A DNA stretch of 64,000 bases from Nageia nagi. Lineage: Eukaryota; Plantae; Pinophyta. Position 1 is the stretch's first letter. Every line of letters starts with the position of its first letter. The notes under the pieces are model-generated. The model was not told the DNA's origin. It was given only the letters and a program-made list of their open reading frames with translations, and ran no database searches. Positions 15,773 through 57,700 of this stretch are shown here, in pieces. The stretch spans positions 58,652,001 through 58,716,000 of the forward strand of contig JBITNC010000001.1 of assembly GCA_050084985.1 (NCBI GenBank). The letters are read 5' to 3'. A program made the position numbers and the translations under genes.

Positions 15773-15774
15773 TT

Positions 15775-15791
15775 TGGTGAACCCGACATGA
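15775..15791 (+). promoter_or_regulatory. Primer binding site complementary to the tRNA-Trp 3' end
   Basis: TGGTGAACCCGACATGA versus the reverse complement of the recalled plant tRNA-Trp 3' end TGGTGAACCCGACGTGA (1 transition), 2 nt after the LTR. Confidence 0.85.
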
Positions 15792-15794
15792 AAC

Positions 15795-19291: not shown

Positions 19292-19870
19292 TATCAGTTT
19301 ATCATGCCTCTTGGTGGAGTTCCAGCTCCTGTTATCAACTTATCATGCCTCTTGGTGGAGTTTTAGCTCCATCAGTTTATCATTATTTTGTGAAGTTCGA
19401 TTCTTATGCAACTGCAGCATACCTCTTGGTGTGAAGTCTCAGTTGTGTGGAACTTAACTCTCCTCTATCAGCTTATCATGCCTCTTGGTGGAGTTTCAGC
19501 TCCATCAGTTTATCATTGTTTTGCAGAGTTCGGTTCTTATGCAACTGCAGCATACCTCTTGGTGCGAAATCTCAGTTGTGTGGAACTTAGCTCTCCTCTA
19601 TCAGCTTATCATGCCTCTTGGTGGAGTTTCAGCTCCATTAGTTTATCATTATTTTACGAAGTTTGTTTCTTATGCAACTGCAGCATACCTCTTGGTGCGA
19701 AGCCTCAGTTGTGTGGAACTTAGCTCTCCTCTATCAGCTTATCATGCCTCTTGGTGGAGTTTCAGCTCCATCAGTTTATCATTATTTTGCGGAGTTCAGT
19801 TCTTATGCAGCTGCAGCATGCCTCTTAGTGAGAAGTTTTAGCTTTCATTGCAATGTATAGAACTTAGCTC
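19292..19870. repeat. Tandem array of four 133-bp units plus a 41-bp partial unit in the element 3' region
   Basis: Unit starts TATCA(G/A)CTTATCATGCCTCTTGGTGGAG at 19333, 19466, 19599 and 19732; partial copy at 19292. Confidence 0.97.
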
Positions 19871-20258
19871 TCCCCTACGTGCGATCATGGTTATCATGTC
19901 TCGTCTTGTGATGTGGTCTTGTCAAGTCGTCTGTTAGGTCATCATCATGTGTGTTGTCAAGTTTGTTGTCATGAGTAATCAGTGTTGCGGCAAGATTATC
20001 AGATTATCAGATATATCAGGCTATCACCTTCTATGGCAAAATGCAAGGGGCAAGCATGCCCAAGGTAATATCAAAAGGGAGTTTTCTCAACCCATATCTA
20101 GTACTAATAAGCTTTGTCATGATGTTGTTTAAGTTTAGAATGGTTAGTGTTTATTATTGCTTATCAAATTGTTTGCTATGATATTGTGTTTTTACTTTGA
20201 ATGCAAAATCTCAACTCACCTCATGTTTCTTTCGATTTCACATCCAAAGTGGGGCATC

Positions 20259-21107
20259 TGTTAACACATAAAAATGAATTTATGTTTTTAAATCAATAAA
20301 TTAATGAAATATGCTTGGCCTAAATATATGTCTTGAATGTATTAAGGTGATAATATCAATGTTTGTCTTGAATATGAATTTTATAATGATTATCTTGAAT
20401 ATTGCATGGGTTATCTTGAATATTGCATGAATTATCTTGCTTACTGGTGTATTTATCTTGAATATTGTGAATTAGCCTTATTTATGTAGATGCATGCCGA
20501 CCCATGGGTTGTATTATCTATTATCTATATAAATAAGGGATCTAATAGTAAGTCCACACAACAAGGATACACACGATCCCGCGTATGGTCTTGTAAGTGG
20601 CAATCCCTTAAGGTATCTCTTGGTATCGCCTACAAGGCTATGGTTTGTGTGCTTCCTTTCACAGCTATCCTGACATCCACGATCTATTTTGATATCGCAC
20701 TACTATCTGAGACACCCGTATTGAAGTTTTGGACTTGATCGAGAGGTCAAGAATCATCAAACGAAGGTCGTCGGTGCTCCTTTATGAACCAAAGAACACC
20801 GTCGTGCTCTTATATCACTGAAAAGACCCCGCGGTCCTATTGTTGCATCTTCTCAGGTCACTACAGTTTTGGAAGGGCAGCTCATCATCAGTGCATCGCC
20901 AACATATTCATCTTTCGTTGTCAGGTACGTTCCGTGAGGTAAGTACACAAATTACAGTCTTGGTTGGTATAATTACATTTCTGAGTTGGTTATTTTGTTT
21001 ATTGCTATTTAGAATAAATTGCTATACGTAGCTCAAATACAGATAATATTGAGTTTGTAGATATTTGCCTATTTGTTTATTTGCACGCTCAATTTTATTT
21101 GTAAACA
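20259..21107 (+). repeat. 3' LTR (849 bp)
   Basis: Direct repeat of 14920-15772, preceded by the PPT and followed by TSD GTATA. Confidence 0.97.
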
Positions 21108-28500: not shown

Positions 28501-28704
28501 GATAATCAAATGGATGAGTATCTATGGCAGGATGTAACACTCCTCAAGGCTTGGCTCTTGGAATTAAGGGCAAAACTGATGCTCAGAGGTGGACTATATG
28601 ACACAGGAGAGGAGCTCTGCAGGACCTGTATTAGTATCAGAACAGTTTTATTGGGTACGGAACATCCTGACTCCGTAGTGCTCAAGAGACACTGGCCAAA
28701 CTAG
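25531..28704 (+). CDS. TIR-NB-ARC-TPR (TNP/XTNX) protein, At4g23440/At5g56220-like, intronless; true end probably 28736 (1-bp frameshift at ~28677)
   Basis: 1057-aa ORF. N-terminus MELLQQESSRFG...FVSASQSPFFSPRSP; TIR SCDVYIGTHG...NPYSIEELRIF with the catalytic-position Glu; P-loop GESGIGKT at 27157-27180; Walker B LLVIDNLE; HVIITTR; family insert KGKELVVWKESENEIE; C-terminal TPR-like LRAKLMLRGG..GEELCRTCISIR. Confidence 0.95.
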   Translation: MELLQQESSRFGAPAAPSTTTTPTPVPRPARNLSSSSSAFVSASQSPFFSPRSPTPSNYTESQFSESSKSDIQTSSNSGSQLSIIRTTYAQRAPVLLSYLSLNATSVNDIPSSSHGPSFIRATQFKDTQNHKIPSLASRDTGSNHGMPQRHPVATSLRASNGGTRVSFARTSASLSSSARLRSCDVYIGTHGQKPSLLRFTKWLRAELELQGIACFAADRARYTDSRSHDIADKVISSATFGVVIVTKKSFGNPYSIEELRIFLGRKNLVPLFFDLGPGDCLARDIIEKRGELWEKQGGDLWMLYDGDENEWREAVNGLSRVSDDWKLEAQSGNWRSCVMRAVSVLGSRLGRRSVAERERLRKDRIPGQEYPFPRNEGFVGRRKELMELEAILFGNAGDDGGGDDDGILDLKIRPRRKDSVIVRRRTDSDRSKKQARRMSESDRLRDVEEEGGNERRRSEADKWDMKNKGKFAGSVDLGGSIKGKELVVWKESENEIEIQRGRSAQRARERRHRARILHKARYAKRSKELNSTYGRGISCVTGESGIGKTELVLEFAYRFAERYKLVLWVGGEARYLRQNFLNLSALLGLDLTTETHISPEKGRNKTFEEQEMEAIQRVRKELVRDIPYLLVIDNLESERDWWDGKDILELLPRFGGTTHVIITTRLPRVMNLDSLRLSYLSSVEAMSLMKGKRRDLSILELDALRTIEERLGRLTLGLGLVGTLLSELPITPSRLLDTINRVPLRDLLWGIRDDSTLRNHPFLMQLLDVCFSILDHADELNNLASRMALVSAWFAPCPIPISLLAVAATKITQRTGSSKLWKKYLHVVGSCFSGSQKKRSEVEASAMLIKFGIARSSTRQGWIYIHEVIQLYTKKKGGNLAAKAMLQGVGCRANIHLHSEHLWAACFHVFGFGNQPVIVEQKVSELLCFIRKGAVPLALYSFTTFSRCLAALDLLRLCTNALEAAEESFVSQVPNWLDKSLCWKIPRHSDNQMDEYLWQDVTLLKAWLLELRAKLMLRGGLYDTGEELCRTCISIRTVLLGTEHPDSVVLKRHWPN

Positions 28705-37728: not shown

Positions 37729-38048
37729 AAGAAGCCAATACTACAAAGGATATGTGGCATTGCCTGGGAAATTGAAGAGCAATTAAAAGCTTATCAAGTT
37801 TTCAAGGAGGATATTAAGCTATCTAATCTCATATGTTTAGGCCAAAAGCTAGACTTTTTCTCTATACAAGAGGAAGAGGAGGAGGTTTGGTATTATATAA
37901 CCTTAAAGGGGCTATTTTTAGGCACCATATTGAAGATTCTTGGAAGGGAACAAATATACAACACAATTATGAACTTTTGTATACATCACATGTGGCTAAA
38001 GATGATTTGTGGAAGATAAGTGGATATCTAGAGATTTACAAAGAAAAT
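37729..38048 (+). pseudogene. Fragment of a nuclear-encoded organellar threonyl-tRNA synthetase (EMB2761-like)
   Basis: KKPILQRICGIAWEIEEQLKAYQVFKED...LGQKLDFFSIQEE/GGGLV..KGAIFRHHIEDSWK...YELLYTSHVAKDDLWKISGYLEIYKEN; one frameshift at ~37877. Matches recalled ThrRS MLQRIYGTAWE.EEQLKAY...GGGLVFWHPKGA...LWKISGHLDFY.EN. Confidence 0.9.
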
Positions 38049-41000
38049 TCCCAAAATTGGGAAATCCTCCTAGAGAGAAAAATAACTTTGTAAATATGCA
38101 AAAATAGGTCCCCAAAAATGGATAACCCACTCCCAAGTCCGATATATATTGAGAACTCTAAAATTTGAAGCATAAAGGTGAACCTTGAGGTAGATTCAAT
38201 CTCTAATTGACCCAAGAGATCAACCCTTGAATCTCCAACCAAGAGCAAGGGTCATCCTTTTCTACAAGATTAGTTCTCCTAAATATTTTGGAATCATACC
38301 TAATTTGTAGAAGATGGAGTAAGGGTTCAACCCTTCACTCTTACAATTTCATAATATGACATATACATAATAATGTTTAAATGGGATGCTCTCTTCCTTT
38401 TTATACTAAAAATGTTATAATTCTTCGTTGAGCCCCCTTTTATTACAGCATGATTCAAAATAACACTTTTAACTAATTAAAAATACCTCAAATGCTATTA
38501 AGTGGGATATCCCAATTCCACACATGCTTAATTAAAATTTATAAAAATTAAGTGAAATTTGGATGTCCATATTAGGGACATCACAATACCGCCCCTCACA
38601 AATTGCTTGTCCTTAATAAATGCAATTGAGTGTAGCAATCCCTATTGTACTATATATTTAATGATCACCTTGTTTATCAACTTTTTCTTCTTGGTCTCAA
38701 CAATAGCATATGGTGTTAACTGGATTCCATATATATATTTGTGTGTGTAATATTTGTAGTACCATTTCCAGCAAATGCAAATACATAATATAGGGATCTT
38801 CTATATGAATAAACAACTTCTATTATTGTATGTTCTCCATCAATAACTTCATTGGAAGCATCATCGTGTACCCATATTTCCATATATGTTTTACTTCCCT
38901 AGTAGAATTATGATTCATGTTCATATATGGAATGGGCATGAATAATTATTTGAATATTTTTGTTGTAATTATGGAGTGAAGCTAGTCACTACCATAAAAG
39001 ATAAAGTGATCATTGTAAGGGAAGTTATGGAGACTGAAAGTCAAGCATAACCATTTATAGAAACAACTTTGGTGACTCTTGGGAAGTTGAATTTATCTAG
39101 TGAGAATATTGAGGAAAAGATCATTTTTGTGGTTTTCTCAGTAGTTGTAATAAATATTTCACATTAGGTTATGGTATATACAATACTTGATCATATTGCA
39201 AAACAACTTTATTATGCTACAAGGTTCATACAACATTTTTTTCCAATCTTCCTTCTATAATTGATCATAAGGGGAAATGACTCTCATTTAAACTAGATAG
39301 TAATGATTATTTTTGAACCTATTACAACTTTGGTAAAACAACATTCCCTTATTTGAACTACTCCTAACCTTCTACATGATGCTTATATATTTTTAGTTAT
39401 ATTTTATCAAATTGATGGTGTGATTGTAATATATGCTAACATTCTACATTATCATAGTCAGTTTATATCTTTTGCTCTCACTTTAAATGACTTTGCAATA
39501 ACTGCAAACATACAAGGAATAATGAAATCTAATATTAATGTTGGTCTTGGTGTGGCTCATGCAACATGTACCTTAAATGATGTTGCAATATTTTCAACAT
39601 GGATAGGAAATATACTTTCAATTTCATTAGTTTATGATGGGAAGGTTGTACAAAAGATGGAATATTCAAAGGTTGGGATGACATTCCTTTGCTTTAGGAG
39701 TTGTTGGGCTGATAATTGACTAGTGTAGCCAGAGTACTTGACCAAGTTCAATCAAGAGACACTTTTCCATATCTTTTACAATATGCCAAAGGATGAGCTC
39801 AGTTATATGCTGCTAATGAGTTATGTAGAAGAGGTTGGATCTATCATAAAAATATTCAAATGTGATTTATGTGTGTTCCATAAGTAGAGCTATATTTTTC
39901 AATGTTGTATATATATATAACACTTGGAAAAAAAGTACAACCAATCTTTGAAATATTATGTTATAGCAAGCTATGTTGTCAACAACATGTCTAATGAAAT
40001 TGAAAGAGCTCAAAGTATTGAAGTAACAACTCTATGTGAAATAGGATTAGATCCAAGAATATAATATCATATAGGAATTGTTTTTCTTTAAGCTTTTTAT
40101 GTTTTATGTATTAGAAATGTTGCACTTAATTCTAAGGAGGTGGTTGTATAGGGTATAATAACTGATCTTCTAAGTCATATTATAGATAGATATAGTTATA
40201 ATAATATAGCATACAGTAATGGTAAGCACTAGATGTTGCAAGAGTTACAGGAACATGAATCAAAATTCTATTGGGGAGGTAAAACATTGACAAAAAGATG
40301 GGTACATGATGATGTTGCCAATTGAGTTATTGATGATGAACTGAAAATAACAAAAAAAAATTCTTCATATAGAATATCTCTATGTTATATAGTTGCATTT
40401 GCTAGAAATGGTACTAAATATGTTACACATAGATATTGAATCCACTTAACACCAAATGATATTATTGAGACCAAGAAGAAAAAGTTGATAAATAGGGTGA
40501 TCATTAAATATTTGGTATAATGGAAGGGATTGACAAACTTAGTTGCATTTCTTGAGGACAAGCAATTTGGGAGGGTTGATATCGTTATGTCCCTAATATA
40601 GATGTCCAAATTTGAATTAATTTTTATAAAGTCTAATTAAGCATGTGTGGTATTGGGATGTCCCACTTAATAGCATTAGAAGTTTTTTAATTAGTTAAAA
40701 GTGTTATTTTAAATTAGGTTGTAATAAAGGAGGGCTCAATGAATAATTATAATATTTTTAGTATAAAGGGAAGAGAGCACCCTATTTAGACATTATTATG
40801 TGTTTTTCATGTTATGAAATTGTAAGAGTGAAGGGTTGAACCCTTACTTCATTTGTTGCATATTAAGATTGATCCCAAAATCTTCAAGAGAACCAATGTT
40901 GTAGACAAGGCTAACCCTTGCTTTTGGTTGGAGATTTAGGGTTTGATCCCTTGGGTCAATTAGAGAGTGAATCTACCTCAAGGTTCACCTTTGTGCTTTA

Positions 41001-41125
41001 TAATTTAGATTTCTTAGCATATATCATACTTGGGATTGGGTCTCCATTTCTCAGGACCTATTTTTGCATATTTTAAAGTTATTTTTCCCTCCAGGAAGAT
41101 CTCCTAATTTTGAGAATTTTTTGAA
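38040..41125. repeat. Long inverted repeat, arms ~38040-38922 and ~40251-41125, spacer ~1.3 kb
   Basis: Arms are reverse complements (for example GGTGAACCTTGAGGTAGATTCA at ~38177 versus TGAATCTACCTCAAGGTTCACC at ~40968), roughly 80-85% identical by eye. Each arm is chromodomain relic + PPT + LTR start. Confidence 0.93.
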
Positions 41126-43498
41126 CATTTTGAAGGTTGATTTGTGATGTTTGATAGTTGATTTATTTGTTTCCACTTGCAACAAAATTTAATAAAATTT
41201 ATATGGCCATATCTATTCCATTTTAAGGGATTTTGTGTTATTTTTCTAAGTTATTTATAGAATTGATTTTTTAAATTGTAAAATCTGATTTGTATGCAAG
41301 ATTTCTAATATTTCTAGTTAGGGTTATTACATTGATGTATTAAGGATTTTACTTCTTTAAATCTAATGAAAAGGTGATTGTTCATACCATATCCTTCTTT
41401 GGTGAGTAACTTCTAAACAACTTTCAAAAACCTTGATCATATACAACCTTTCTTCTACTGGACAATCTTATATATCAAAAACTAATTAAAGGACTAGTCT
41501 CCATCTCCTTTCATTAATTTCTTATTGTATAAAGATTTTGGTAATAGTTATTTAAAAGACCCTAATAGGGAGTTTGAAGCAAATCCAAGATAATAACTAA
41601 TGTTATGCATCAAGTTAGTTGATGTCAATAAAGATTATTATCAATAAAGAGCTCACGAGAGTTGCAATAAGGGGTATAGGATAACATATATGATATTCAA
41701 AGGAATCTTGGAAGGTAGTTTTGGTAGTTAAGGTATAGGGTAAGTGTTGATATTGTTTCTTCTATTAATGATGGATCTTATTCTTGGCCTCACAAGATTT
41801 GACTTAATTTATTTTATTGATGATCCTTTATTTCAAAAAGAAGTTCATGATGGATGGATGTTATATTATATTATCCAATTGTTTCATGCAAGATTATGAA
41901 TAAGATGTATAGTTTTTAGGTAAAATAATGATCAAGAATGGATAGGAAGAAAAAAATAAACATGAAAATGAAAATGATGAAGAATAATATGATTGTGATG
42001 AAGTAGAATATGAGGATGAATATGTAAGTGGTATTGAATAAGAAAATGAATTAAATAGAGAAACATTTAAAATTTAAGAAGATCATATTATTTTAATTAA
42101 TTCCCCTCTCTTATCACTCAATAGGATCAAAATAAAATATAACTATTATAAAATTTCATAGAGATATCTATCCAATTAAGAAGAAAATATAGCATGATAT
42201 CTATGGTACAAACTCTCTTCAAAGATAAAAGAAATAATACATAAGAATATCAAAGAAGAATGGCTTAGAAAGAAAAGACTATATACTCTTGATAAAGTAG
42301 TAAATAAAATTGTTCCTCAATGGATTAAAATAATTACCCTATTATACAAGCAAAAACATATTCCGTCATTATCCTAAGAAAGATCATCATTCATGCCAAC
42401 AATCTAAAAATAAGATAAATATTCTTCTTGTAGCCTATATATCTATGATTACCCTATAAATAAATTTTCCTTCTTCATAATAAAATATAATCCAAAAATT
42501 CTTATGAAAGAATAAACTATTCCAAAAGAATACTAAAATTCCTTAGATCCATCATATAACCATGAACTTTATTCCCTTGATGTACCTATATGTCTTAAAT
42601 ATGGTATATACCATACTTTTTTTTCTATTGACAAAATATCCTTATAAATGTCATATTAGATTAATCATTATTATTTAAACACCCTTAAAATCCTATATGC
42701 CCTATAATTGTTCCATTTAGAATACCTAAAACCCTTACTATAGCCTAAAATCTTGAAATCCCTAAAATCTCAATCCCTTCAAACCAAAGTCTTCCTCATT
42801 AAACATGAAAAAGAAGAATAAAACTTATAATCCATTGAAATCAATATCAAAATATTTTTCCAACTATCACATAGGAGAATTATTTAGAAGAAAACAATGT
42901 CAAAATAAAGGATTAATAATCATTTAACAATCTTTTACTATAATTATTACCATAAATCAAAACTTTTAAAGATGACAAATGATTAAAAATCTTTTAAGAA
43001 AAATAATCCAAGTAATATGCAATAGTCTAGAAAGAGGAATATATTAAGTAGTGGTAAAAAAAGAGGAAGAATATGATGAAAGTGCTCCTAAAGTTCTATC
43101 GAAGAAATACTATGATGAAAATATTGAAGTATACAAAAACTCAATTTAGCAAAATATAAAAAATAATAATGGAATTTAAAGAATTTATATCACCACATAT
43201 AGTGCATAAGTATCAAATATAATTAAAATAGGTTAAATTATATTTTGAAGTATTTATATTTAAGCACTTAAAATAATGGTATATTATTTTATTTATCAAT
43301 CATCCTTCTCTCTCATTAATAATATTTGGAATCATTTAATTCATTATTACAAAAAATCCTAAATCAATCCCTCTATTGTGTTATGAACATCATGAATTGT
43401 TATATGAAATGAATCACATATACTTATTTAATATCATATTGTACACATAGATATAGGTCCATATTATTAGGAATAGTATTACATTATAGGTAATATTT

Positions 43499-44708
43499 TG
43501 TAGAATCCCAAATATAATTCAAGTGCAATTAAATCAAAAACACACAAGTATACTCCAATGTCTGACCTAGGGCATCCATAAGAAGCTCAAACAATGCAAT
43601 AATGCCAATGTTTCCAAGACTAGCATATACAAGTATAAATACCTCATAATGCCAACATATGGCTCATATAATCATATACATGCAAAATTAATCCAATGAT
43701 GCCAATACACAAGTATACACAACACAAAAATGAGATCCAATAGCCCACGACTTGTATTAATGATGCAAAATGAAAAAAGATATAATATTAGGCCCATAAG
43801 GCTCAATGTTGGCCTCTAAGGATCTAACTAAGGCACAATGAATATGCTTAATGCTGGACAAATAGAACACTGAATGGGATAGCCTCACTCCCTTAGAATC
43901 TGAATCCTCTCCATGGAAGGAGCTCTCTCCAAACCCTGATGACCAATTGAATGATAGAAGTGTGCCTCAAAATGCCACCAAATGGATTAAAGTGCTACAC
44001 AAAAGTTGTAGATCAACAATATCTCTCAACTAATAACCCTCCTAGATGTTGCACCTAGGGATGTTGCTTGATGTTGCACCAAGATTTATGTCCTTTGGAT
44101 GATATGTGTAATAATCAATTTATGTATATCCATAATTGATTCTCCAAGGACTAATATAGCTTTCCTAGATCTAGATCTCACCTCAAATTCATCACCCAAT
44201 CCCCTCAAACTCTAATGATGGAACCTAGGAGTCATTCTAGGCCTAACATGGGTATTTAGACCTCCCTCATTCTCCATGTGGGTCCTCAAGCTCAATGTGG
44301 GATTAAGGATACATGCATGGGTCAAGGAAGTATGTATGGGAATCTAGGGGCATGCATAGGTGTCATGGGCCAATGTGGGGGTCTATAAGTCTCCCCAAGG
44401 TTGGTGCATATGTACAAGTGCTCCCAATCTCAATGTTGGGACCATTAAGTGATCATACATGCTCTAAGTGCTAAATAAACCTTAGGATTCCCATAATCAT
44501 AGTTTGGGATTTTTAAATACATTAAAATACACTAAACGATACTTAGGAGGGAGAAGTCCCACTTGGCACTCATAGTGGGATCCAATGGCCCATTAAGTCT
44601 TCTATCCCAAGTACTAACTAATAAAGGATAATTAAATAATTAATTATATAAAAGGGGGAATCTAATGGATTCCATAATTAATTACAATTGTATAAGGGGG
44701 ACATCATA
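43499..44708 (-). repeat. 3' LTR (~1.2 kb)
   Basis: Direct repeat of 48113-49316; adjacent to the PPT. Confidence 0.95.
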
Positions 44709-44729
44709 AAGCCTTCCCTCTCAAAATTA

Positions 44730-47640
44730 CTTACCCTCAACCAATTCAATGTTGGATGTGCAAATATCTCTTCTCCTTCCCATGTTAAGTCTTCATCAGG
44801 AAAGTCCCTCTATTTGATAAAGTATTCTTGAATATTTCTTTATCTTAGTTTCTTTAATCAAGTCTCCAACACCCTCTATGGAATCTAAACCAGGTGTCCC
44901 TCATCATCAAGTGTTGGGAGTGTAGTAGATCATACATCATGGTATCCCATGACCTTATTTAAGAATGATACATGGAAGGTGTTGTGGAGCTTACTTTTCT
45001 CAGGAAAATCCAACTTATAAGCAGTCTCTCCCACCACGTGTAGGATTTTGTATGGCCCAAAGAATCTAGGATGCAACTTCTCTACTCCCTTTTTCTTGAG
45101 TGTGGACTATCGAAAGGGATGTAACCTCAAGTACACCATATCCCCTACCTCAAATGTCCTCTTCATTCTCTTCTAATCATAATACTTCTTTTGGAAATTT
45201 TGGTCCATCTGTAGGTTCTCCTTCAGAGCTCTCATGATGTCCTAATATTCCTACAATATTTCTTTAGATTTTTGTATCTTTTTTTATAAATAATCAAGTC
45301 TATAAAGTTATGGGGATCATAACAATACAAAGATTTGAAAGGAGACATTTTTATATAAAAATAGTAGGTGGAATTATAACAATACTCCCAAAATAGAGCC
45401 ACATGATCCACATTTGTTGTTGTCCTATCATGTAGTGTCTCAAATACCCTTCCACCCATTTTTTCATGATTTTTCCCATCCTTTTGGGGGTGGTAACTGG
45501 TGCTTGGGGTGAGATTGGTGGCACTCAATTGGAACAACTATTTCCAAAACATGCTTATGAACTTGTTATCCATATCACTCATAATTATCCTAGGCAACCC
45601 ATGTACTTTGAAGATCTCTTTCAAGAATAAATCAATCAAAAATGTTGTTGTATATGTGATAGTAATGGCAAAGAAATGGGCAAATTTAGTGAGCCTATCT
45701 AGAACCACAAAGATACAATCTTTACCTTACATCTTTGGAAGTCCAATGATGAAATCCATGGAGATGTTTTCGCATTTCTACTACAGAATGGAAAATAGAT
45801 GAAGTAACCCTTATGATTTCACATTATCTTCCTTATTTTCTTAGCACTGTACACACTCTTGACCATGCCTCAAAACATCCCACTTCAGCCCTTTCCACGT
45901 GAACCTCTCCCCTATTGCCTTATATGTTTTCATGATGCCTAGATGACCTATAAGAGGAATGTTGCGCAAATCATGGAGTACCTTCTCCTTCATTTCAAAG
46001 TTAGGGGTCAAAATATTGCATTCCTCTTCAAAATCATCCCCTCCCTAATCATGTACCTCTTGTTTCTTATAATTCCATCTAAGATCCCTTGAGCAAACTC
46101 ATGACTAGTGTATTTAGCCATTATGATCTTTTTCCAATTAGCAGAATTAGAGGAAAGAGAATAAAATGATGGGTTCCTATATAGTGCATTAGTTGTTGTA
46201 TTCTTCTTTCCTTTAATATACTAAATCTCAAAATCAAAGAATTGAAGTTTACTTACCCACCTTTATTATTTCTCACTTAGATCTGATTGGATGAAAAAGT
46301 ACAAGCTTTTATGGTCACTATTGATGATAAATGGACCAAAAAGTAAATATTGCTTGAATCTATCCAATGCATGCATAATTACCAACATATTTTTATCATA
46401 CATGCTAAAATTCTACTTTGTACTTATCAAATTTTTGCTCTCAAATGCTATCAATTTTCCTTTTTGCATGAGTACAACTCCAAAACCAAGCTTAGATGCA
46501 TCACACTCAACAATAAAAGGGATTGAAAAATTAGGAATAACCAAGAAAGGATAGGAACACATAACCTTCTTGAGTGTCTCAAATACATCTTGAGCACTCT
46601 CACTCCAAACAAATGCATCCTTCTTGGTCAACTACATTAGGGGGAAACCAAGTGGGAGAAGTCGTGTATGAACCTCTTATAGTAGTTGCATGACCTTGAA
46701 AACTCTCTCAATTATGTTAATATGGTAGATGTTGGTCATTCCTAGATAGTTGCAATATTTTCCCATCCACGCTAACTCCCATATGGCTAATTACATGACC
46801 AAGATACAAGATTTTATTCATGTCAAAGTCACATTTGGACTTCTTTTCATAGAATTTGTTTCCTGCAATATCCTAAACATGTGGTCCAAATGATGGAGGT
46901 ATTCCTTCCACATTTTATTATAGACCAAGATATCATCAAATAACACTAACACAAACTTCCTTAGATGCTCCTTGAAAACTTGATTCATGGTTGATTGGAA
47001 GGTGTTGGTGTATTAGTCAATCCAAAAGGCATCACCAAAAACTCAAAGTGATTATAATGGCATCTAAATACCATTTTGTGTATGTCCTCCTCCTTCATCA
47101 TTATTTGATGGTATTTGTATCTTAAATCAATTTTTGAAAAGTACTTAACACCATGCAATTCATTAATGAGATCATCTACTCTAGGAATGGGATACTTATT
47201 CTTGATGGTATTCTTATTAAGCAAGTGATAGTTAATGCACATTTGCATAATCTCATCCTTCTTCTTAACAAACACAATAGAAAAGGCAAAGGGACTAGAG
47301 CTTGGCCATAAGAACCCCATTTTCAACAACTCCTTGATGGTCTTCTCGATCTCATCCTTATAGACTTTTGAATGCTAGTAGGTAATAATCATAACTGGCT
47401 TGGATTCAAACTCCAACTAGATGGTGTGCTCAAATCCTATAGAAGGAAATAGCCCTTTCGACATATCTTTGGAAATATCCAAGTATTAGTATAATATGCA
47501 TTGTATGTTAGATGGATACTCCTTGACCCCCCTAGAATACAATGGGGGGCCTCCTTTATCCATAGTGAAAATGTAGCCCCACTCTATCTCATCCTTCCTA
47601 ACAATGGAACTCATCTTCTTGGGTGATATGATCTAAGTAA
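44730..47640 (-). pseudogene. pol: Decayed pol (RT-RH-INT-chromodomain)
   Basis: Motifs in ORFs 46985-47329, 46413-46631 and 45232-45537; multiple stops and frameshifts. Confidence 0.92.
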
Positions 47641-48112
47641 TAGCCTCTAATTTGCTACTGATAACTCTATATCTAAGTGAAATCTTCCACTCATCCCTTT
47701 TCTTCAAATATAATAAAGTAGTTGAATCCTTGACTCCTCCCGATGGCCCAGATCTAAACATTGGGGCCTAGTTAGCTTGTACCCTCCAATGTTGGATTTT
47801 CTCCATGACACTACTCCATAACCTAGAAGATCCTTGATAGATCTAGAGCAAGAGTTCAATATTTGGTAGAGTCTTATGTGGAGGTACAGATCTAGGATCC
47901 CACATCTACCCTCTCTTCTTGCATGTATTCTCCTCATCCTGTTCACCTAGGAACCATAAGAGTCTCTCCCTTTCCTCCAAAGGGATCTTATTATCTTCAA
48001 ATTTCTAAAGGAGTTAGTGGAAAACTACCCTTCCAAATTTTGAATTCTTCACTTTAGCTATAGATATGGCTTCCATTTCCTTAGGTGGTAAGATCTTAAT
48101 CTCTGATACCAT

Positions 48113-49316
48113 TATAGAATCCCAAATATAATTCAAGTGCAATTAAATCAAAAACACACAAATATGCTCAAATGTATAACTTAGGGCATCCAAATGAAGA
48201 TCAAATAATGCAATAATGGCAACATTTGACCAAGACTAGCAGATACAAGTATGTAATACCTCACAATGCCAATGTATGGTTCATATAATCATATACATGC
48301 AAAAGTAATCCAACGACACCAATACACAAGTATACAAACACAATGATATCTAATAGCCCACAACTTGTATTAATGATGCATAATGAATAACAATATGATA
48401 TCAGGCCCACAAGGATCAATGTTGGTCTCCAAGGAGCCAATTAAGGTATAATGAATATGGTCAATACTAGATATATGAAATATTGAATGGGACAACCTCA
48501 CTCCCTCATAATATGAATCCTCTCCATCAAAGGAGCTCTCTCCAAGATGACCAATTGAATGGTAGAAGTGTGCCTTAGAATGCCATCAGATGGAGTAAGG
48601 TGCTACATCAAAGCTGTAGATCAATAGGATCCATCAGCTTGTTAAGCCTCCTAGATGTTGCACCTAGGGATATTGCTTAAAGATATGCCAAGACTTCTAT
48701 CCTCTGAAGGGTATGTGTAATAATAAATATATGTATATCCAACAATGATGCTCTAAGGACTAATATAGCTTTTTTGGATATGGATTTCATCTCAAATTCA
48801 TCATCAAATCCCTCAAATCCCACTAATAGCACCTAGAAATTATTTTAAGTCCAACGTGGGTATCTATACCTCCCTCATGCTCCATGTGGGTCCTCAAGCT
48901 CAATGTGGACTTGGGGATACATGCATGTATCAATGAGGCATGCATGGGTATATAAGGGGCATGCATGGGTGTCATGGGCCAATGTGGGGGTATAGAAGTC
49001 TCCCTAAGGCTGGTGCATGTGTATAGGTGCTCCCAATCTCAACATTGTGACCATTAAGTGATCATCCATGCTCTAAGTGATAAATAGACCTTAGGATTCC
49101 CACAATCATATTTTAGGATCTCCAAGTATATTAAAACACACTAAAATATACTTGTGAGGGAGACATCCCCCTTAGAGCTCATAGTGGGATCCAATGACCC
49201 GTTAAATATTCTATACCAAGTACTAACTAATAAAGCATAATTAAATAATTAATTATACAAAAGGGGGAATCTATTGAATTCCAAAATTAATTACAATTGT
49301 ACAAGGGGATGTCACA
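48113..49316 (-). repeat. 5' LTR (~1.2 kb)
   Basis: Direct repeat of 43499-44708; adjacent to the PBS. Confidence 0.95.
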
Positions 49317-52300
49317 TATTTTTAAGGTAGTTATTATTTTATCTTTATCTGTTCATAGAACTCTTATGATTGTATATTAATAAGAAACAAACAAATAGTT
49401 GGTTAAGTTTTTGAACATGTATGTTCTCTCTATAATGAAACAATATTACAATATTCAAAATTCTCACATGGTATTAAAGTAGGCTCAGTGAAGAACCATG
49501 GATTGGTGAGATTAAACTCCAACTCATTTATGTGAGAAAATTCAATTATATTCCTTTGTTGTAATAATATGTAGATATCTAAATAAATAGATATAGGTAT
49601 AGTAAACTACCCGTAGATATTTGTTCTTTTATGTACTTGTATAATCCATAGATCTTTATAAGAAGATGTTGCATTTTAAGGTTTATAATTCATTTTTATG
49701 TACACATGTGAGGGACCTATAGGTAAATATTGAGAAAAATCATATTCATGCTAGCCGAATAGGTGTTGATGAGTTCTCACTGGATATCAATTTCCCGATA
49801 AATGAATTTTTAAAATTTGCATTCATGGGTTAAACTTGGAGATATTATGAAATATTATGCTCTAACCTTTTATGCCTTGTAATAAAATGCAAAATATTTC
49901 TTATGCCTGACTATGTAAGAAAGTAGAGTGACTCTCATTGAGCACTTACCTTTTAGTGTATAACTTCATAAAGATTAGTAGAAGGGTGATATTGAATTAG
50001 TTTATTACTAACTACAACTTGAAGGCAAGACTAGCCTGCTTAGTTTTGTTTGCAAAGTGTTGTATTCCCCAGAATATGATATCATACATTTAAAATACCA
50101 GAGTGCAAGAGAGTAATTTTAAATATTTTCTCCCCATCCCACATTTTGAAACAAGTGATGTCAACATGGATAGTGTCACATTATGGCTAAGGAGTCATAA
50201 GAATAATTTTAGTCAATATCATAATTTTTATTAGCTTACACCATCTCACATATTGTCAAATTGTGGGGAGATATTTTAAAATGTGATATAATTGCTTGTT
50301 GCATTTTGGATGCAATGATATAAGCTTTTGCATTCACAAATCATGGCTCAACATTCTCTTATAAGACTATCACTCTTTTTTAGATGTTAACATCATAAGA
50401 TTGAATGTCTCACCTTGACATAGTGTGTTAAAGAGAATTTCAAATGCTTGATTCTCTTTTAGTATAGTGATATCACCTTAGTTTTCTTGGATTATGGCTA
50501 GACCATAATAAAAACCCAAAATGACATGATAATTCAATTCAAAAATCTAATATGTCATGAAAAAGTACAAAAAGCTTCAAGAAGGTGTGATAAGAAGATA
50601 TTATTGCTCAAGAAGGTTTGGAAGATGATAAGAAGACTAGATGACATCAGATGAGCTAGTAGTTAGTTAGTGTGAGTTAGCATCAACAACCTAGATCTAA
50701 TCTTGGGGAGTCTTTTTGAAGATTAATATGGTCAGATATGCTAGTTGGATCTTGTATTCTAGATATTTTTTGATATGAGTTTTTAAAATGTAACCAAAAG
50801 TTGTTAGTAGTAGATATTTTGTAAAAGTAGTTAATTTGTTGTAATGAGTAGTTTTTGAATGTAGCTACTGAAGGTTTTGGCTATAAATATAGCTTAGTTA
50901 AATATATTATCTCTCTCTCTTATAGGATTTTTTGCTCATACAAAGTTTGTGTTAGAATATAGAGTTTGATCAAATTTGAAAAAATCCACATGGAAAGAGA
51001 AAATGAAGTTTGAATCCATATTTAGTATGACATATTTGATGGTTGTAATAATTTATTATATGGATGAGAACTCATAGCTATATGAATACTTATATAATGT
51101 ATTGTATTATGCCTTAAGAAGTGTGTGATATCATATCATGGTATCCCCAAAATTTCTATGTTAGGTATTCATGATGTGAGCCTCTTTTATTATCAAGATA
51201 GAAGGATGGTTGCTAAAGAATTAACGTAAGAATGTATTATATGATCCTCTCATGTAAGAGTGAGAGAGAAGAATCTCATAATAGAGATGAGAGTGTGAGG
51301 GTTTAATAAAGCTCTATGAGATCTTATCTATGTTGTTATGTCTATAATATTAGAATTGTTATTTTCTAGATGAGAGTTGAAGTGGGTGCACCATGCTTAT
51401 ACCTAGGATTTAATGCAAAGTTAATAGAGATGCAAATTATTAGCCTTGTAGAGTGCACTAGCTCACATTGGGTGAACCATTATAAAGATTTTTGTGTCTT
51501 CCATACTTGCTTGATTATTGAATTTATTAATTTGTTTTTTGTTTAGTTTTAATTTCCTCAAATGGAATAAGAGTAGTGACAAGTTTGGCTGAAGGGGTTT
51601 AAAAATCTATGGATGTTCATGGAAATTTATCAAGTTTCTCATATAAGTTTGTTGGGTCAAATTTTTATTTTAGTTGGAGAAATGGTAGATGGTAATGATA
51701 ATTTCAAGAAGTAGTGGGAGACATACATGAATATGGAAGTGTGGAGGTGCTCATAAAGGAAATTCTAGCATTTTCAAAGCTATGAATGTGTCTTCCATGT
51801 TTTGAGAGTTTTCTTATTTTTTGTGAGTTTTTGGATCTCAACAAGAATTCTAAGAGAGAAAATATAGGTGTATATAAGAATGGATCATTTTGTACATCAA
51901 TATATTTGATCTGGTTGATTGTTATTATTGTTGGGTGCATTCTTCATTACCGCATGTGAGGATAATGGATAGAGAGCTTAAAGATATGAATAGTGATTTT
52001 AGAAGGTGCAATTCATGATGTGAAACTATGAGGAGGTTAAGCATATGGAGAGTCATAAATAATGAGATAATGATCTATTGGATCTTGTAGATGTTGTTGA
52101 TAAGCATCATATCACAAAATTTGGAAGTGGTAAGGAGTCCTTAATGGTATCCACAACTTGGCAATGGTATACAAAATCCCATAGAATAATATAACAATAG
52201 TAATATTTAATTACTATTTTTATTTAAATCATTGGGAGAGTTGGCCTATAGAATATAGTTGGCAAGGGCATGAGTTTCAGCGAATAGAATTGAATGATGA

Positions 52301-52384
52301 TAGTGAATTTAATAGAGCTTACAATCGTTATGAACAATAGATGGTGTTGAGATATTTTTGAACCTCAATGAATAATATATCACT

Positions 52385-54736
52385 TTTTTATTAATGGCAA
52401 ATTATATTAATAAAAAAAAGTGGGGATTGAGAAGGCTCCGTGCATCTTTACATATAAAAAAATATCAATGTCTAGATATACAAAAGGAGTACTAAATACC
52501 AAGATAAATTGGCACACCAAAGCAAAGCATACACTTATCCCTTTAGGAGCTAACTTTGTTATAAAAAGTAAAGCCATAAATCAAATTATAAATACATTTA
52601 AACTTGTATATAGACATTATAGCAAGTAAATCATAAGAAACCAAAGCTAGGATCTCTTGGGCTCTTCAAAACGATCATCGAACAAAGACCCAATATACCA
52701 AAACTAAGTGTTTTTCTCATATGAAACAAATAAAGAACCTTCAAAAATTAAAAACTACCCTCCTTACCACCTAAATCATGATCATATCCTCATATACCTT
52801 TAACCTGAAGGCTATATTCTCATAATTCTTCTTGTAAAATTGACAATAATATTTTCCCTCCATTAAGGTTGCTAGAGGAGCCTTTGACAGAATAACTTCA
52901 AACTGCTTGCTCATCTCTTCTCTCCTCCTTATTACCTCACATAGCATTTTATTATGCATCACTCTAGATTATGATATTAGGATTAGAATTGCTTTCATCC
53001 CTCTTTTTCTTAATGTCAGAATGCTCAAAGTCTTTACTAGTTGTTCCTTTGCCATGTCTTTCCCCTAGGTTCTAGCTCACTATTATGCTTTTTTAATTTC
53101 CATTGAAATTAAGTTTTACATATCTACTTTAAAATCCTTGGTAGACTGAGATTTATGTTTGAGTCTCCTTGAAAGGCATTTTTTCCATTCCTTTCTTCTT
53201 GTTACTATTAATAAGAGTTTCCTTATGCGATCTTATTCTCTTTTCCACTCCCACCATTTCCTATTTGGCATTTTGGTCTTTAGGATTTGAGGCTCTTTTC
53301 CTATTCTTCTTGTTACCCCACCCCCTTCCAATTTCCAATAGGAGGTCAGTAATTTCCTCAAATTCAATCGATGCATGACTTCTTGGACTAACCTCCCCAT
53401 CTTCTATCCCTACTGCATTCACCTCTACTTCCCTCACCTTTGTCACTTTATCTACATGATTCCTTCTACTAGCAAGAGCCTTTCTCCCTCTTCCCAAGGT
53501 CCTCTAAGGTTGCTTGGTAAAGGCCACCTCATACACCAAATTAATAATTGAATGGTGTAGATGTACACTATTTTCCTTTCCTTTACACTTGTTAGTTGAG
53601 ATTTCCAATGAATGCATAATGAAAAATCAAAAGTTTACTATCTCATCACCTTTGAGCCTAAAATGGTTCAATAATCCAAAGTGATATGTATACATAAGTT
53701 GATTCTAACCTTTAGAATAACATATCACATCAAAGCTTTAACCACCTCATCTCATAGCTTAGGATGGTTAGTGTGTTTGAAACCTGGTCTTGACCTAACA
53801 AAATCCTCTCCTTGTTTCCTAAACTTGAAGATCTCCTCCAACTTTTTGAGCTTATATTCCCTCTTTAATTATTTTCCTACATTTGGCATATGAATAGCCT
53901 TTGTGATAGTCTCATAATTGAACTCAAAGTTTATTGAATTTACCTTACAATGCCCTCGATTCCAACATTAGACCACCTCCAAAGATAAGCTTAAATTGAA
54001 ACCTTTGCAAGCTTCCATGAAATCCTTCTAGCACCCATAACACAATATTTTCCACACCCTTTCATCCTTTCTAACTATGGTGCTATTCAATAAAACAATT
54101 TTAACTAGTCCTCCCCCCATACTCACTATTCTTGGCTACCATTTAGGTCACTATTCAAATGACACCAACCTTGACAATTTTCTAATTAAGGCTTGCAATT
54201 GCAACCCTCCCTTCACTGCATATGATGTGATGTTCCCTTGCATTATCCTACTATATGTACTGTGACTTACAATGCCTAATCCAAGGAATGTTGATTCCTA
54301 TGGATCCACCCCTATACTTTGTTACCATCTCATCCCTCACTTAGTGCTAAATCAATTCACACACTTCACTCACCCCAAGCACATTAACACTCCATAATGG
54401 CTATCATTACCCTATTTCACTACAAAATCTAACTTCCATATTAAGTCTACATGGTATCTATCATTTACAATATGGATTTACATTATTTAATATTATTACC
54501 ATTAGCCCATATGTTTTCCTTTACTCTTAACCAAATTATCTTTAGGATCATCTTAACTTCACTCTCCTTCTGCTAAAAAAATTCTTCTATTATGTTCCTT
54601 CCATATTTGGTAGTGATAATGAGCCTATATAACATTCCTAATTCATATCCCTTTGAATTTTTCATATCAATCCAATTAACTATCATCTCCACTATTGTAT
54701 TGAAGTGTTTTCATCCATACCCCATCCCCTCCACTA
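52385..54736 (-). mobile_element. 5'-truncated L1-type LINE carrying an extra ORF downstream of ORF2
   Basis: 18-bp TSD AATGAATAATATATCACT at 52367-52384 and 54737-54754; short A tail (..AATAAAAAA) at the minus-strand 3' end; TT|AG target site; ORF2 C-terminal motif YQIWKEHNRRIF at ~54577-54612. Confidence 0.85.
52770..54120 (-). pseudogene. Decayed ~450-codon extra ORF (ORF3) of the LINE
   Basis: ATG at 54120: MGGGLVKI..VWKILCYGC*KDFMEACKGFN..ETITKAIHMPNVG..PGFKHTNHPKL*DEVVKALM*YVILKVR/QLMYTYHFGLLNHFR..VNF*FFIMHSL..LHHSIINLVYE; then a basic low-complexity part (ORF 53261-53497) and a helical tail (ORF 52771-52962). Confidence 0.7.
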
Positions 54737-57700
54737 AATGAATAATATATCACTAACTATACAAAGTTTCCAAATATTTGTAATATAAATATTAGCTTTA
54801 GTGATAAGTAGATATTAATAATGATGCCTATGCCTTGGTATTTATGATGTGTAATTTCATGTAATGGCAAGATGATGATAATATACTACTAGTTGGTATT
54901 TGATGATAAGAATAATATGATAAATATTCATAAAGATATTTGGTGATTGAAATAGATTATGGACAAAAGATATGACTTAAACATGATGCAAAATGATAAG
55001 AAGATCATGGCTAGTTTATTGGAAGTCTTGCCAATTACAATACAAGGAAGAATGATAATGTGGATGGTACATAATTAAGATCTTCAATGTAAAGATGCTA
55101 ATGTGGAGATGCAAATTGTTAGTAGGGACATGTAATTTCGATGAATAGTATGAAATGTGGTATTGTGGAGAAGGTGGTACCAATCTAATGGCACTAATGG
55201 GTACTGATTCCAACAATAATGAGTTGGAAAATAATTAATATTTCCCATAAGATGAATCTAAGGAGGCAAATAGAAGTACATAATGGAGAAAAATCCAAAT
55301 TGAATATTGATCATACTCCAAGTGGTAGAAAGTTAGAATATGGAGTTTGATTAGATTTGAATAAGTCCACATGTAAGGAGAAAATCAAGTTTGACTCTAT
55401 ATTTAGTATGGCATCTTTGATGGCTGTAACAACTAATTCTATGGATGAGAAATCACAACTATATGAACAATTATATAATGCATTATATTGTGCATTGATA
55501 AGTGTGTAATACCATATCATGGTATCCTCAAAATTTTCATGAGTCATTCATGATGTGAGCCTCTCTTATTATGAAGAGAGAATGATGCTTGTTGAAACAT
55601 CAAGAATGTATTGTGTGATCCTCTCATGTAAGTCAACTCTCATAACATAGATGGAAGTGTGCGGGTTTGATAAAGCTCTACGAGAACTTATCTATATTGT
55701 TATGTATAACATCTCAAGATTGTTATATTCTAGATGAGAGTTGCAGTTAGTGCACCATGCTTGTACCTAGGATTTAATGGAAATTTAATAGTTTGATCCC
55801 TCTAGAGGTTCTATTTCATAAGGTTGGATTACTTAGGATTTTTTCCCCTTACAATGGAAGATCAATTGTTATGCTTCAAATTGAGTATTGAAGTATCCTT
55901 TTATTTCAAGACTTGTGTTATAAGATATCTAAATGGTTAAATATGGTGATTTTTTGTATATCCTATAAGGTGGTGATTGAAACATTAGTGACTATTGCAC
56001 CCACTATCTTATTGTGGATATGTGGTCTTACATAAATTTGTGGTCATGGGATGGAGGTCTTTTTTATGGTTCTAATATGATCAATTAGAAGCCTTGTTTG
56101 GCCTCATGCTCCACCATTTACCCTCTTTCTAGTATCTATATACCTTTTTATTGCCTTTTTGGCATCTCTTAACTTTTAATTATGCAATGGCATTCCATGC
56201 CTAATGGATAGGGCATCGTCCTAACAAACCAATATGTGAAGCCTTAATCAGGAACATGTCTCTTTTTGTTGGATAACATTCTTAAAAATATTTATCTCTT
56301 TATTTGTGGGATGATAATATTTGTATCCATGGTTTTTATGCTCGAGATAATGGGTTTGCTCTCTTGTTTGTGAGATAGTGTTCGCACATGAATTATCGTT
56401 ATGTATTTCGAAAGATAGTTCTACAAGAAAAAGGTCCCTATTAAGCACCATCCTATTCAAATATCAGAGGTTGGTCTAGGTAAAACCAATCCATACAAGA
56501 ACTTGTTAGTTCATTTAGTCTCCACTAGCACTTCTTGCATTATTCAAATCAACTAGTATACAAATTCAAGCTTTATAGAATTGCAATAGAGGTGATCCAT
56601 AATACAATATAAGATGTAGTTCAGTTAACATTGAATCTGAATAAAACCATCAAATATGACATCCCTAGAAGCCATACCCATCTTATGGATATGTTTTTTA
56701 TAGTCCATAAGATGTATAAGGAGAAAGGAAATTCATAAGAAAAATTGTATGAAAGCCTTTACAATATGATTCATGGGGAGGTTGATGGTGACAAGGATAT
56801 TTACATAGGTTATGCATGGTGTTCAGCTCCATTTTTAAATCAAGTATATATGAGTATTAATAATAAATAAAAATTCTCCAAGTGAAGGAAGAAGGCACAT
56901 ATTCATAGAGGTTTTCGATGTAGGTGATAGGCTCATCGAGGTATAAGAAAGGTCAATAATCTATGATCAGTGGGATCCCCAAATAAACACAAATTCTACA
57001 TGAATTCATTGGTGGTGCATAACATATAGAAGAATCCAGTGAAAGTATCAATGATGATATCAACTAGTGGGAGCCTTTAATGCATATGAATGATGAGAAC
57101 TAAATGGGATGAAGATCATTAAGTCTTGAGGTTGATGATGATTGGGTGGGTCTTTTAGGTGATAGTATTTATGAGCTTAATGAATCCTTTTCTATAATGC
57201 AAGATTGATTCTAGTGATAAATATGATAAAATACAAATCCATGGCTATCATGGCAACTTTGTGAATGTTATCATAGGAAACAAGGAGTATACTATAAACT
57301 CGTATGGATGGAATCAACATCAACTTGAGACACATGGAGATTATATGGAGAGGTCACCACATATATTATTGTTTAGTAGTACCTAATACTCCTTAAATTA
57401 TAATAAGTTCACATTAAGAGGGGTTAACATATTCTTCTCTCATATAGTGTGCACTTGATTTGAAGATGATTTGACTTATAACATGCAATTAAAGGAAGTA
57501 AAAACTTGACCTAGAACCAATAAAGATATCTTGTAAGTAGTGATATACTCTATTGCACTTGGTAGTTATAGTTATTGGTGATCTATGTATTATGATAGGA
57601 TGAGAAGCTTTCCATAAGGATGCTCTTGATAAAAAATGCAAGCTCAAGGATTTGTATGGGTAAAATAAGGACCATACTACACTTAAGATAAATGGATGTA

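Follow-up and report, generated by a model that had tools for sequence, protein, structure and literature searches.

A third gene in an L1 lineage, with a predicted PMD/VANC-like product that may counter silencing

Is the decayed reading frame lying between the end of ORF2 and the 3' end of an L1-type insertion a gene of the element's own family, and what might its product do? The insertion lies on the minus strand of the window (the whole 64,000-nucleotide stretch of Nageia nagi DNA analyzed here). The sequence at 52385-54736 belongs to a dead L1-type LINE that is truncated at its 5' end and retains the end of ORF2 and a decayed ORF3, with the following features.

52367..52384, no strand: TSD on the element's 3' side, an exact 18-bp direct repeat
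52385..52438, minus: conserved 3' terminus, a T-tract, CCATTAAT and then 5-6 A, common to the end of L001 (0/300 shuffles reach the score)
52385..52770, minus: 3' UTR of ~390 nt (386 nt in L001)
52771..52968, minus: ORF3 C-terminal segment, open for 65 codons, likely helical; matches the L001 ORF3 C-terminus (z 14, 0/300 shuffles)
52969..53584, minus: decayed charged linker of ORF3 that contains basic clusters; its frame path is uncertain
53585..54120, minus: ORF3 N-terminal domain of ~180 codons that starts with the ATG at 54120 and has a frameshift near 53700; found by the family profile in two frames, with a PMD/VANC-like fold predicted for homologues
54121..54482, minus: ORF2-ORF3 spacer of ~360 nt, the true ORF2 end being uncertain
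54483..54736, minus: what is left of the L1 ORF2 C-terminus, including IWKEHNRRIF at 54606-54577, and the 5' truncation point at 54736
54737..54754, no strand: TSD on the element's 5' side, 18 bp, exact

The repeats at 52367-52384 and 54737-54754 enclose 2352 bp, in agreement with a preliminary description of this DNA that had proposed an exact 18-bp TSD around an insertion of ~2.35 kb, and chance alone would yield only ~0.0015 such pairs per 5 kb of DNA with this composition. The A tail claimed in the same description holds as an A-rich end, but the run following CCATTAAT consists of just 6 A, the last of which is part of the TSD. The 3' end is marked by the terminal block, which also ends L001, a copy outside the window (score 42, reached by 0/300 shuffles). 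A 5' start common to the window copy and L001 was rejected, their first 75 nt being alike but 78/500 nulls scoring equally. The window copy is flanked by direct repeats that are 81% identical.

The pattern IWxERN marks the C-terminal region of plant L1 ORF2, and IWKEHNRRIF had been read accordingly. Plain tblastn recovers this ORF2 remnant weakly (E 0.33), though as the best match in the window and at the right place, whereas a frameshift-tolerant alignment to the ORF2 C-terminus of L004, a second outside copy, reaches a score of 76; none of 300 shuffles exceeded 54, and of the 378 tiles cut from the window the highest-scoring unrelated one reached 42. The reverse transcriptase domain is absent from the 5'-truncated window copy. 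On the same strand, 457 bp past the motif (~450 bp in the earlier estimate), the ATG at 54120 opens ORF3, which extends over 450 codons (54120-52771) and fits the decayed ORF of ~450 codons described before. Five stops fall within its first 146 codons, and there are at least two frameshifts, one near 53700 and one somewhere in the linker. The N-terminal domain matches the family profile in two frames with E values of 2.9e-44 and 9.6e-07; the linker gave no homologue match by tblastn, and a profile and tblastn search found no second ORF3 copy in the window.

A protein search with ORF3 returned 49 matches at E <=0.001, 11 of them at <=1e-10, and 14 of the 49 align starting at query residues 1-3. 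Plausible homologues are 48, all scoring on the family profile; the remaining match, P0042, was rejected, being bacterial and built of fibronectin-type repeats. The named plant matches (9/9) come from Ginkgo or Taxus. No Pfam family was assigned to ORF3 in any of the 49 matches at E 0.05, and seven window pieces gave just two weak, unrelated Pfam matches. Word-seeded protein searches returned 0, 0, and 1 match and no further fused ORF2-ORF3 models among proteins of up to 2000 residues, while prokaryote genomes and a first metagenome scan held no ORF3 match and PDB sequences searched with the family profile yielded no significant match. A viral origin was rejected for want of any match, viral contigs yielding none.

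Beyond the window, DNA context comes from three loci of one clade, found with one query, and only L001 (P0008) is among the 48 homologues. ORF2 sequence lies directly upstream of ORF3 on the same strand in all four distinct copies with DNA (window, L001, L004, and L005), with a common layout of ORF2, a spacer of 0.35-0.57 kb, and ORF3; RT and zf-RVT are visible upstream in one of the four (L004), the other three holding the ORF2 end only. In L004, RVT_1 (E 3.7e-25) and zf-RVT (E 1.7e-18) are followed on a single strand by IWKERN, by a stop near 7781, and at 8348 by the ATG of ORF3, and its best PDB matches are to human L1 ORF2p (E ~1e-16), compared with 1e-7 for R2. L001 and L005 start with the last 13-15 codons of ORF2 (compared with L004, 0/500 shuffles reach either score). 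The spacers of L001, L004, and L005 align with one another (z 14, 7.3, and 3.0), and the window spacer aligns with none of them (z <=1.2). Moreover, L001 is flanked by a 13-bp TSD and shares its 3' end with the window copy, the two being 37% identical, so that two of the four copies have a TSD and a 3' UTR that closes with CCATTAAT(A)n, with A runs of 6 (window) and 8 (L001). L005 is inserted within a Copia gag-pol.

A fifth linked case is the Taxus gene model KAH9292484.1, in which zf-CCHC, RVT_1 (E 1.2e-32), and zf-RVT are followed by ORF3. This single predicted, spliced model, a gene prediction seen without its DNA, unites L1 ORF1, ORF2, and ORF3, and it opens with an LTR-type RNase H piece; its 90% cluster comprises four gene models on four differently sized contigs. 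The Taxus ORF3 is 23-28% identical to those of the other four linked copies, and linked copies occur on both sides of the midpoint root of the ORF3 tree. Pfam reports no APE endonuclease in the Taxus model, and the DNA copies are all truncated 3' of it. By its ORF2 with RVT_1 and zf-RVT, the PDB match, TSD, A-rich end, and 5' truncation, the carrier is classified from its sequence as an L1-type LINE.

The coding sequence itself appears constrained. In all six ORF3 pairs pN/pS is below 1 (upper 95% bounds 0.44-0.80) and third codon positions are the least conserved, and in the three pairs with unsaturated dS omega is 0.11, 0.22, and 0.26, well away from the value near 1 that the preliminary description had named as a counter-sign. 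The codon alignments were made via the protein profile, so pN is biased downward. Among L001, L004, and L005, which share the collinear spacer, omega is 0.11-0.22, so that selection acted while the gene was linked. These ratios indicate that ORF3 evolves under purifying selection, and its reading as an unconstrained translated spacer was rejected, the ORF lying downstream of ORF2 and being constrained. Taken with the homologues and the linkage in independent copies, this makes it very probable that ORF3 is a family-level gene of an L1 lineage; the earlier proposal of an accessory gene of the family is thus supported.

Structure models were obtained for two homologues (P0024 and P0020), the genomic context of both being unseen. 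For the first model the best PDB match is VANC21, with Z 6.8, an rmsd of 4.3, and 180/198 residues aligned (next match, Z 2.0), and for the second it is again VANC21, with Z 6.7, an rmsd of 4.6, and 191 residues aligned; both Z values are below the aligner's caution level of 8, and the identity is 8%. Foldseek also places VANC21 at the top for both models, with E values (2.0 and 0.14) that are not significant. The models are not independent, because many alignment rows are common to both. Coiled-coil matches of the second model were generic and set aside, and a viral fold library gave no significant match. The Ginkgo homologue model ends in a 53-residue helix; a long C-terminal helix, as predicted from homologues, could dimerize. 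Neighbors in the ESM Atlas are clusters bearing Transposase_32, ATHILA-ORF1, and PMD. Feature scores for the Transposase_32/ATHILA clusters are 0.85-0.91, with a structure TM of 0.79, under the tool's naming bar; the top set scores 0.91 with 164/256 shared (bar 170) and has 25/30 matches in the Transposase_32/ATHILA set, and one cluster, 14% of whose members are PMD, gives an alignment with TM 0.71. Taken as a lead, and by way of its homologues, the ORF3 N-terminal domain is predicted to adopt a PMD/VANC-like fold.

The preliminary description had likened the domain to Transposase_32/Athila ORF1 and proposed a module shared with LTR elements. A distant relation is retained by the Atlas scores, but membership is not, because 0/49 matches reach the Pfam profiles PF20167 and PF03078 at E 0.05 (none in the window pieces at E 1). 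Likewise, sharing stands at the level of the fold, whereas no sequence-family homologue was seen inside an LTR element among the few contexts visible. Pfam also gave no match to PF10536 (plant mobile domain) among the 49, nor to DUF1985 in the homologues or copies.

A comparison with known systems places ORF3 between several of them. Canonical plant L1s, such as poplar Celine (PMC11288735; PMC5203782), are described with the same RVT_1 and zf-RVT ORF2, TSD, A-rich 3' end, and 5' truncation, and their ORF1 zinc knuckle recurs in the Taxus model. However, in the available text of these sources they have two ORFs, with at most an RNase H inside ORF2, whereas here a selected sense ORF of ~450 codons follows ORF2; the third ORF mentioned in the accessible part of PMC5203782 is only the primate antisense ORF0. 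The Transposase_32 (PF20167) and ATHILA ORF-1 (PF03078) proteins are likewise extra ORFs, of ~400-490 aa according to the available portions of PMC11728184 and PMC7264820, where no established role for them was found; their carriers are LTR elements, whereas the carrier here is a non-LTR element and the 49 matches reach no Pfam family. VANC, from VANDAL Mutator-like DNA transposons (VANC21, PDB codes: 9lnj and 9lnk; PMC5735166), is also a transposon-encoded accessory protein, and VANC21 is the best, though modest, PDB match of the homologue models over nearly the whole domain; the coiled-coil helix predicted for it in PMC13547354 resembles the long helix of the Ginkgo model. Nonetheless, VANC has a DNA-transposon carrier and is described as dicot-specific in the available part of PMC13547354, and ORF3 has a LINE carrier in likely gymnosperms. 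Moreover, VANC has a DUF1985 domain, to which ORF3 shows no match (8% identity), and target-motif arrays in noncoding DNA, none being found around ORF3 in 16 tests on copies whose 5' UTRs are missing. Sequence-specific DNA binding and induced hypomethylation are described for VANC; for ORF3 they would be hypothetical. The plant mobile domain PF10536 (MAIN/MAIL1, also Gypsy- and MULE-encoded) is reported as a structural homologue of VANC (PMC13547354; bioRxiv 2024.09.27.615353, in the parts available), and both VANC and MAIL1/MAIN are reported in PMC5735166 and in that preprint to oppose silencing. In what is accessible of PMC5418596 and of the same preprint, TE-borne PMDs are placed in Gypsy and MULE elements, whereas ORF3, with no Pfam match, is in a LINE.

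A shared fold by itself shows no function. Because the homologues are predicted to fold like the anti-silencing protein VANC21, we favor, at somewhat short of an even chance, an L1 lineage whose third gene encodes a PMD/VANC-like protein countering silencing on the chromatin of its own family. Synthesis of the protein would rely on a subgenomic RNA or on reinitiation; its basic linker would bring it into the nucleus, where it would bind the DNA or chromatin of cognate copies. By relieving the promoter of DNA-methylation or Polycomb silencing, it would allow full-length RNA to be produced. Given that the gene is real, this sequence of steps has about an even chance of being right. The narrower statement that an old gymnosperm L1 lineage encodes a sequence-specific anti-silencing third ORF expressed from subgenomic RNA is more tentative still. 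Clusters of VANC-type motifs were unremarkable in 16/16 tests covering spacers, 3' UTRs, and entire copies, and 9/100 nulls reach the score of the best test. The copies are all old and lack the 5' UTR, a possible site of such motifs.

The motif result would also fit a real ORF3 with the same fold that acts in retrotransposition instead, by tethering the RNP to chromatin, steering integration, or binding RNA, and the family, linkage, and selection evidence fits this role equally. Copies sit among or inside repeats (L005 in Copia gag-pol, the window copy between its direct repeats), although this is expected anyway in a repeat-rich genome, and the only characterized proteins found with this fold, VANC and MAIN/MAIL1, regulate silencing in the sources as available; we consider such a role rather unlikely, though it is a serious alternative. 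It is less probable that LTR or DNA elements are the main home of the protein family, or that it is a host PMD-like gene, and that LINEs captured it repeatedly through 3' transduction or template switching, with selection predating capture. The closest named families are indeed LTR-element accessory ORFs, DNA context is seen for just one of the 48 homologues, the window spacer is unalignable to the others, and the Taxus model starts with its RNase H piece. However, ORF2 sequence is upstream in every copy with DNA, L001, L004, and L005 combine a collinear spacer with low omega, the divergent window and L001 copies have a common 3' terminus, and Pfam finds an LTR domain in 0/48 homologues, most of them short fragments.

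The starts of L001 and L005, within ~10 nt of each other near the ORF2 end and with upstream sequence ~56% alike, could point to a semi-independent, SINE-like cassette of ORF3 and spacer, in which subgenomic ORF3 RNA is retroposed by the L1 machinery and spreads the gene for itself. Yet these are two copies only, the L005 contig ends and leaves the TSD at its junction out of view, the 5' ends of the window copy and L004 lie farther upstream, and a rough estimate puts a chance coincidence of the starts at a few percent; moreover, selection would be unexplained unless ORF3 aids its own spread. Such a cassette is quite improbable and is compatible with the anti-silencing explanation. The chance is very slight that a single transduction event put ORF3 into the window copy, or that it is a passenger there without function: the heavy decay of this copy and two word-seeded searches with window pieces that gave no match would suit this, but the homologue family, the linkage in independent copies, and an omega far below 1 do not, and L004, L001, L005, and the Taxus model largely refute it.

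Descriptions of LINE-1 elements present them as parasites with two genes, and the published anti-silencing proteins found belong to DNA transposons. A literature search, with Repbase outside its scope, found no LINE with such a third gene, and hence no published family of the kind that the preliminary description had held against novelty. ORF3 is a testable candidate for how L1s remain active in giant, heavily silenced genomes; in the available text of bioRxiv 10.64898/2026.07.23.736688, L1 accounts for 4.9% of the cypress genome. It also bears on the origin of the PMD/VANC fold, which is left open in the accessible part of PMC5418596 and read as a capture from the host in dicots in that of PMC13547354. 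If the anti-silencing reading is true, ORF3 would encode the first anti-silencing factor of a non-LTR retrotransposon, and the PMD/VANC/Athila-ORF fold would be a counter-defense module common to DNA transposons, LTR elements, and LINEs that predates angiosperms. Even without an anti-silencing role, ORF3 is an unannotated retrotransposon gene among the 'hypothetical proteins' of Ginkgo and Taxus.

The LINE in the window lies between two copies of an exact 18-bp target-site duplication (TSD) separated by 2352 bp, and about 0.0015 such repeat pairs are expected by chance per 5 kb. The following features compose the insertion.

52367-52384 and 54737-54754: TSD pair, exact 18-bp repeat
54606-54577, minus strand: motif IWKEHNRRIF of ORF2 (the L1 reverse transcriptase gene), in a decayed reading frame of ~250 nt
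ORF2 remnant to ORF3 ATG, minus strand: spacer
54120 (ATG) to 52771 (end), minus strand: ORF3, a broken frame of 450 codons
3' of ORF3, minus strand: 3' UTR of ~390 nt, terminating in CCATTAAT and then 6 A

The LINE proposed in the preliminary description is real, with the repeat, the motif, the ATG, and the frame all located, although the A tail is short, at 6 A. ORF3 is decayed in this copy, with 5 stops within the first 146 codons and at least two frameshifts. Direct repeats of 81% identity flank the LINE (50951-51427 and 55332-55791), which may be nested in an older LTR element.

Other features were observed in the window. A young LTR element (14914-21107, 860-bp repeats 96% identical) carries a 278-codon ORF at 15792-16625, which precedes a gag-like ORF, and has a 133-bp tandem array at ~19292-19877; because no long pol ORF is among the ORFs listed for it, it may be a non-autonomous element that has gained an additional ORF on its 5' side. 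An intact ORF of 1057 codons (25531-28701, plus strand) presumably resembles a host TIR/NB-type (TNP/XTNX-like) gene. There is also an inverted repeat pair of ~880 bp and 83% identity (38044-38922 and 40251-41120), and an LTR element with an RT piece and 1.2-kb repeats 84% identical (43498-49308), of which a 67%-identical relative is present in the metagenome locus L001 (L001:15-2127).

Pieces of the window ORF3 gave no useful Pfam match, and two word-seeded protein searches with it were likewise uninformative. A full phmmer scan using codons 1-146, with X in place of stops, gave 49 matches at the cut-off of E ≤0.001, the best with E 3.6e-24 and 48% identity. In 14 of the 49 the alignment begins at query residues 1-3, and therefore the start of ORF3 is conserved. 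One match, the bacterial repeat protein P0042, was removed. Among the 29 matches looked up, together with P0055, the named plant matches are gene models from Ginkgo biloba (5) and Taxus chinensis (4), which makes a gymnosperm the likely host of the window. A relevant Pfam family was found in none of the 48 remaining homologues, one of which has two weak unrelated matches. A family profile built from 27 sequences recognizes the window ORF3 with E 2.9e-44 and, past the frameshift, a second frame with E 9.6e-07. Two Ginkgo gene models (P0005, Gb_10421; P0023, Gb_35992) contain two tandem ORF3 domains each, either adjacent insertions merged by the gene caller or a true duplication.

A metagenome scan with the homologue P0008 as query returned five loci, three of them distinct (L001, L002, and L003 being the same). 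In L004, 2.7 kb of ORF2 remain; this stretch contains RVT_1 (E 3.7e-25) and zf-RVT (E 1.7e-18), and its best PDB match is human L1 ORF2p. Then come the motif IWKERN, a stop codon near 7781, and, at 8348, the ATG of ORF3. L001 and L005 are shorter, and the first 75 nt of each correspond to the end of the L004 ORF2 (score reached by 0 of 500 nulls each). The spacers of the three loci are collinear (z 14 for L004-L005, 7.3 for L001-L005, and 3.0 for L001-L004), and the window spacer matches none of them. The window copy shares with L001 a 3' terminal block (0 of 300 shuffles) and an ORF3 C-terminal segment (z 14). Its ORF2 remnant scores 76 against the L004 C-terminus, with a null maximum of 54; plain tblastn of this remnant gave only E 0.33. 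L001 is bounded by a 13-bp TSD (L001:6056-6068 and L001:9417-9429), with a 145-bp tandem duplication (88% identical) beyond the LINE at L001:12356-12645, and the L005 copy is inserted in a Copia element (L005:542-1560, gag E 8.5e-12).

Independently of these loci, the Taxus gene model KAH9292484.1 (2005 aa) shows the order zinc knuckle, RVT_1, zf-RVT, and ORF3 homologue; the LTR-type RNase H piece at its start probably derives from a neighboring element. ORF3 is thus directly 3' of L1 ORF2 in four of four copies with DNA and in one gene model, in a sample where the three outside loci are one clade from one query and DNA context was seen for 1 of 48 homologues. After removal of 22 short rows, 35 of the 57 remained for a midpoint-rooted tree, in which L1-linked copies fall on both sides of the root; the Taxus ORF3 shares 23-28% identity with the other four.

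The copies of the window, L001, L004, and L005 were compared codon by codon in all six pairings (75-153 codons). The pN/pS ratio ranges from 0.33 to 0.60 (upper 95% bounds, 0.44-0.80). Three pairs have finite dS and give dN/dS values of 0.11, 0.22, and 0.26, and in the other three dS is saturated and dN/dS undefined; the profile-guided alignment pushes both estimates downward. The third codon position is the least conserved in every pair, including L004-L005 (68% identical; positions 0.79/0.81/0.63), where this bias hardly matters. These comparisons show purifying selection and, since L001, L004, and L005 have a spacer in common, ORF3 would have been selected while joined to ORF2. With homologues, L1 linkage, and selection in agreement, the family-level gene anticipated from the window is very probable.

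AlphaFold2 models of the P0024 domain (pLDDT 80) and Ginkgo P0020 (pLDDT 77) both predict a largely helical domain of ~195 residues with small strands, and the P0020 model also contains a linker and a helix of 53 residues. When the two were compared with 48,161 PDB chains, both matched best to DNA-bound VANC21, an anti-silencing protein of VANDAL DNA transposons (P0024: Z 6.8, rmsd 4.3, 180 aligned, runner-up Z 2.0; P0020: Z 6.7, rmsd 4.6, 191 aligned), these being modest matches at 8% identity from models built on shared alignment rows. VANC21 also ranks first in Foldseek for both, not significantly. ESM Atlas neighbors of two homologues, leads below the tool's naming bar, are Transposase_32 (0.88-0.91, TM 0.79), ATHILA ORF-1 (0.85-0.88), and a cluster partly of the plant mobile domain (PMD; TM 0.71). 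The suspected Transposase_32/Athila-ORF1 likeness would be a distant relationship at most, with no Pfam match. VANC and MAIN/PMD are reported to be structurally homologous (PMC13547354, bioRxiv 2024.09.27.615353), and a relationship between Transposase_32 and Athila ORF1 is also reported (PMC11728184). Through its homologues, ORF3 is predicted to have a VANC21/PMD-type fold.

By analogy, the ORF3 protein would most likely be a nuclear factor acting on the chromatin of its cognate LINE to keep it expressed, and we infer nuclear import, dimerization, DNA binding, and anti-silencing for it. VANC is described as binding arrays of short motifs in non-coding parts of its own family's DNA, leading to methylation loss (PMC5735166), and MAIL1/MAIN as countering Polycomb silencing at promoters bearing a motif (bioRxiv 2024.09.27.615353). 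Counting against this reading, 16 tests revealed no motif cluster, although every copy lacks its 5' UTR; anti-silencing itself would be a tentative assignment, slightly short of an even chance. The main rival is that ORF3 acts in targeting or within the ribonucleoprotein. In addition, the 5' ends of two diverged 5'-truncated copies (L001:6069 and L005:~1560-1567) coincide to within ~10 nt, at 13-15 codons ahead of the ORF2 stop (L004 ~7730-7741), and for these two copies this point may mark either where a subgenomic RNA starts or where truncation is favored.

In the full-text literature accessible to us, we found neither a plant LINE in which a sense ORF follows ORF2 nor a LINE-borne PMD, VANC, or Transposase_32 domain, although an entry in Repbase or Dfam may already show this ORF. 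The window element is a variant of the L1-type LINE whose accessory ORF3 has been under selection and by analogy would work like the Transposase_32/ATHILA/PMD/VANC group without being a member of it.
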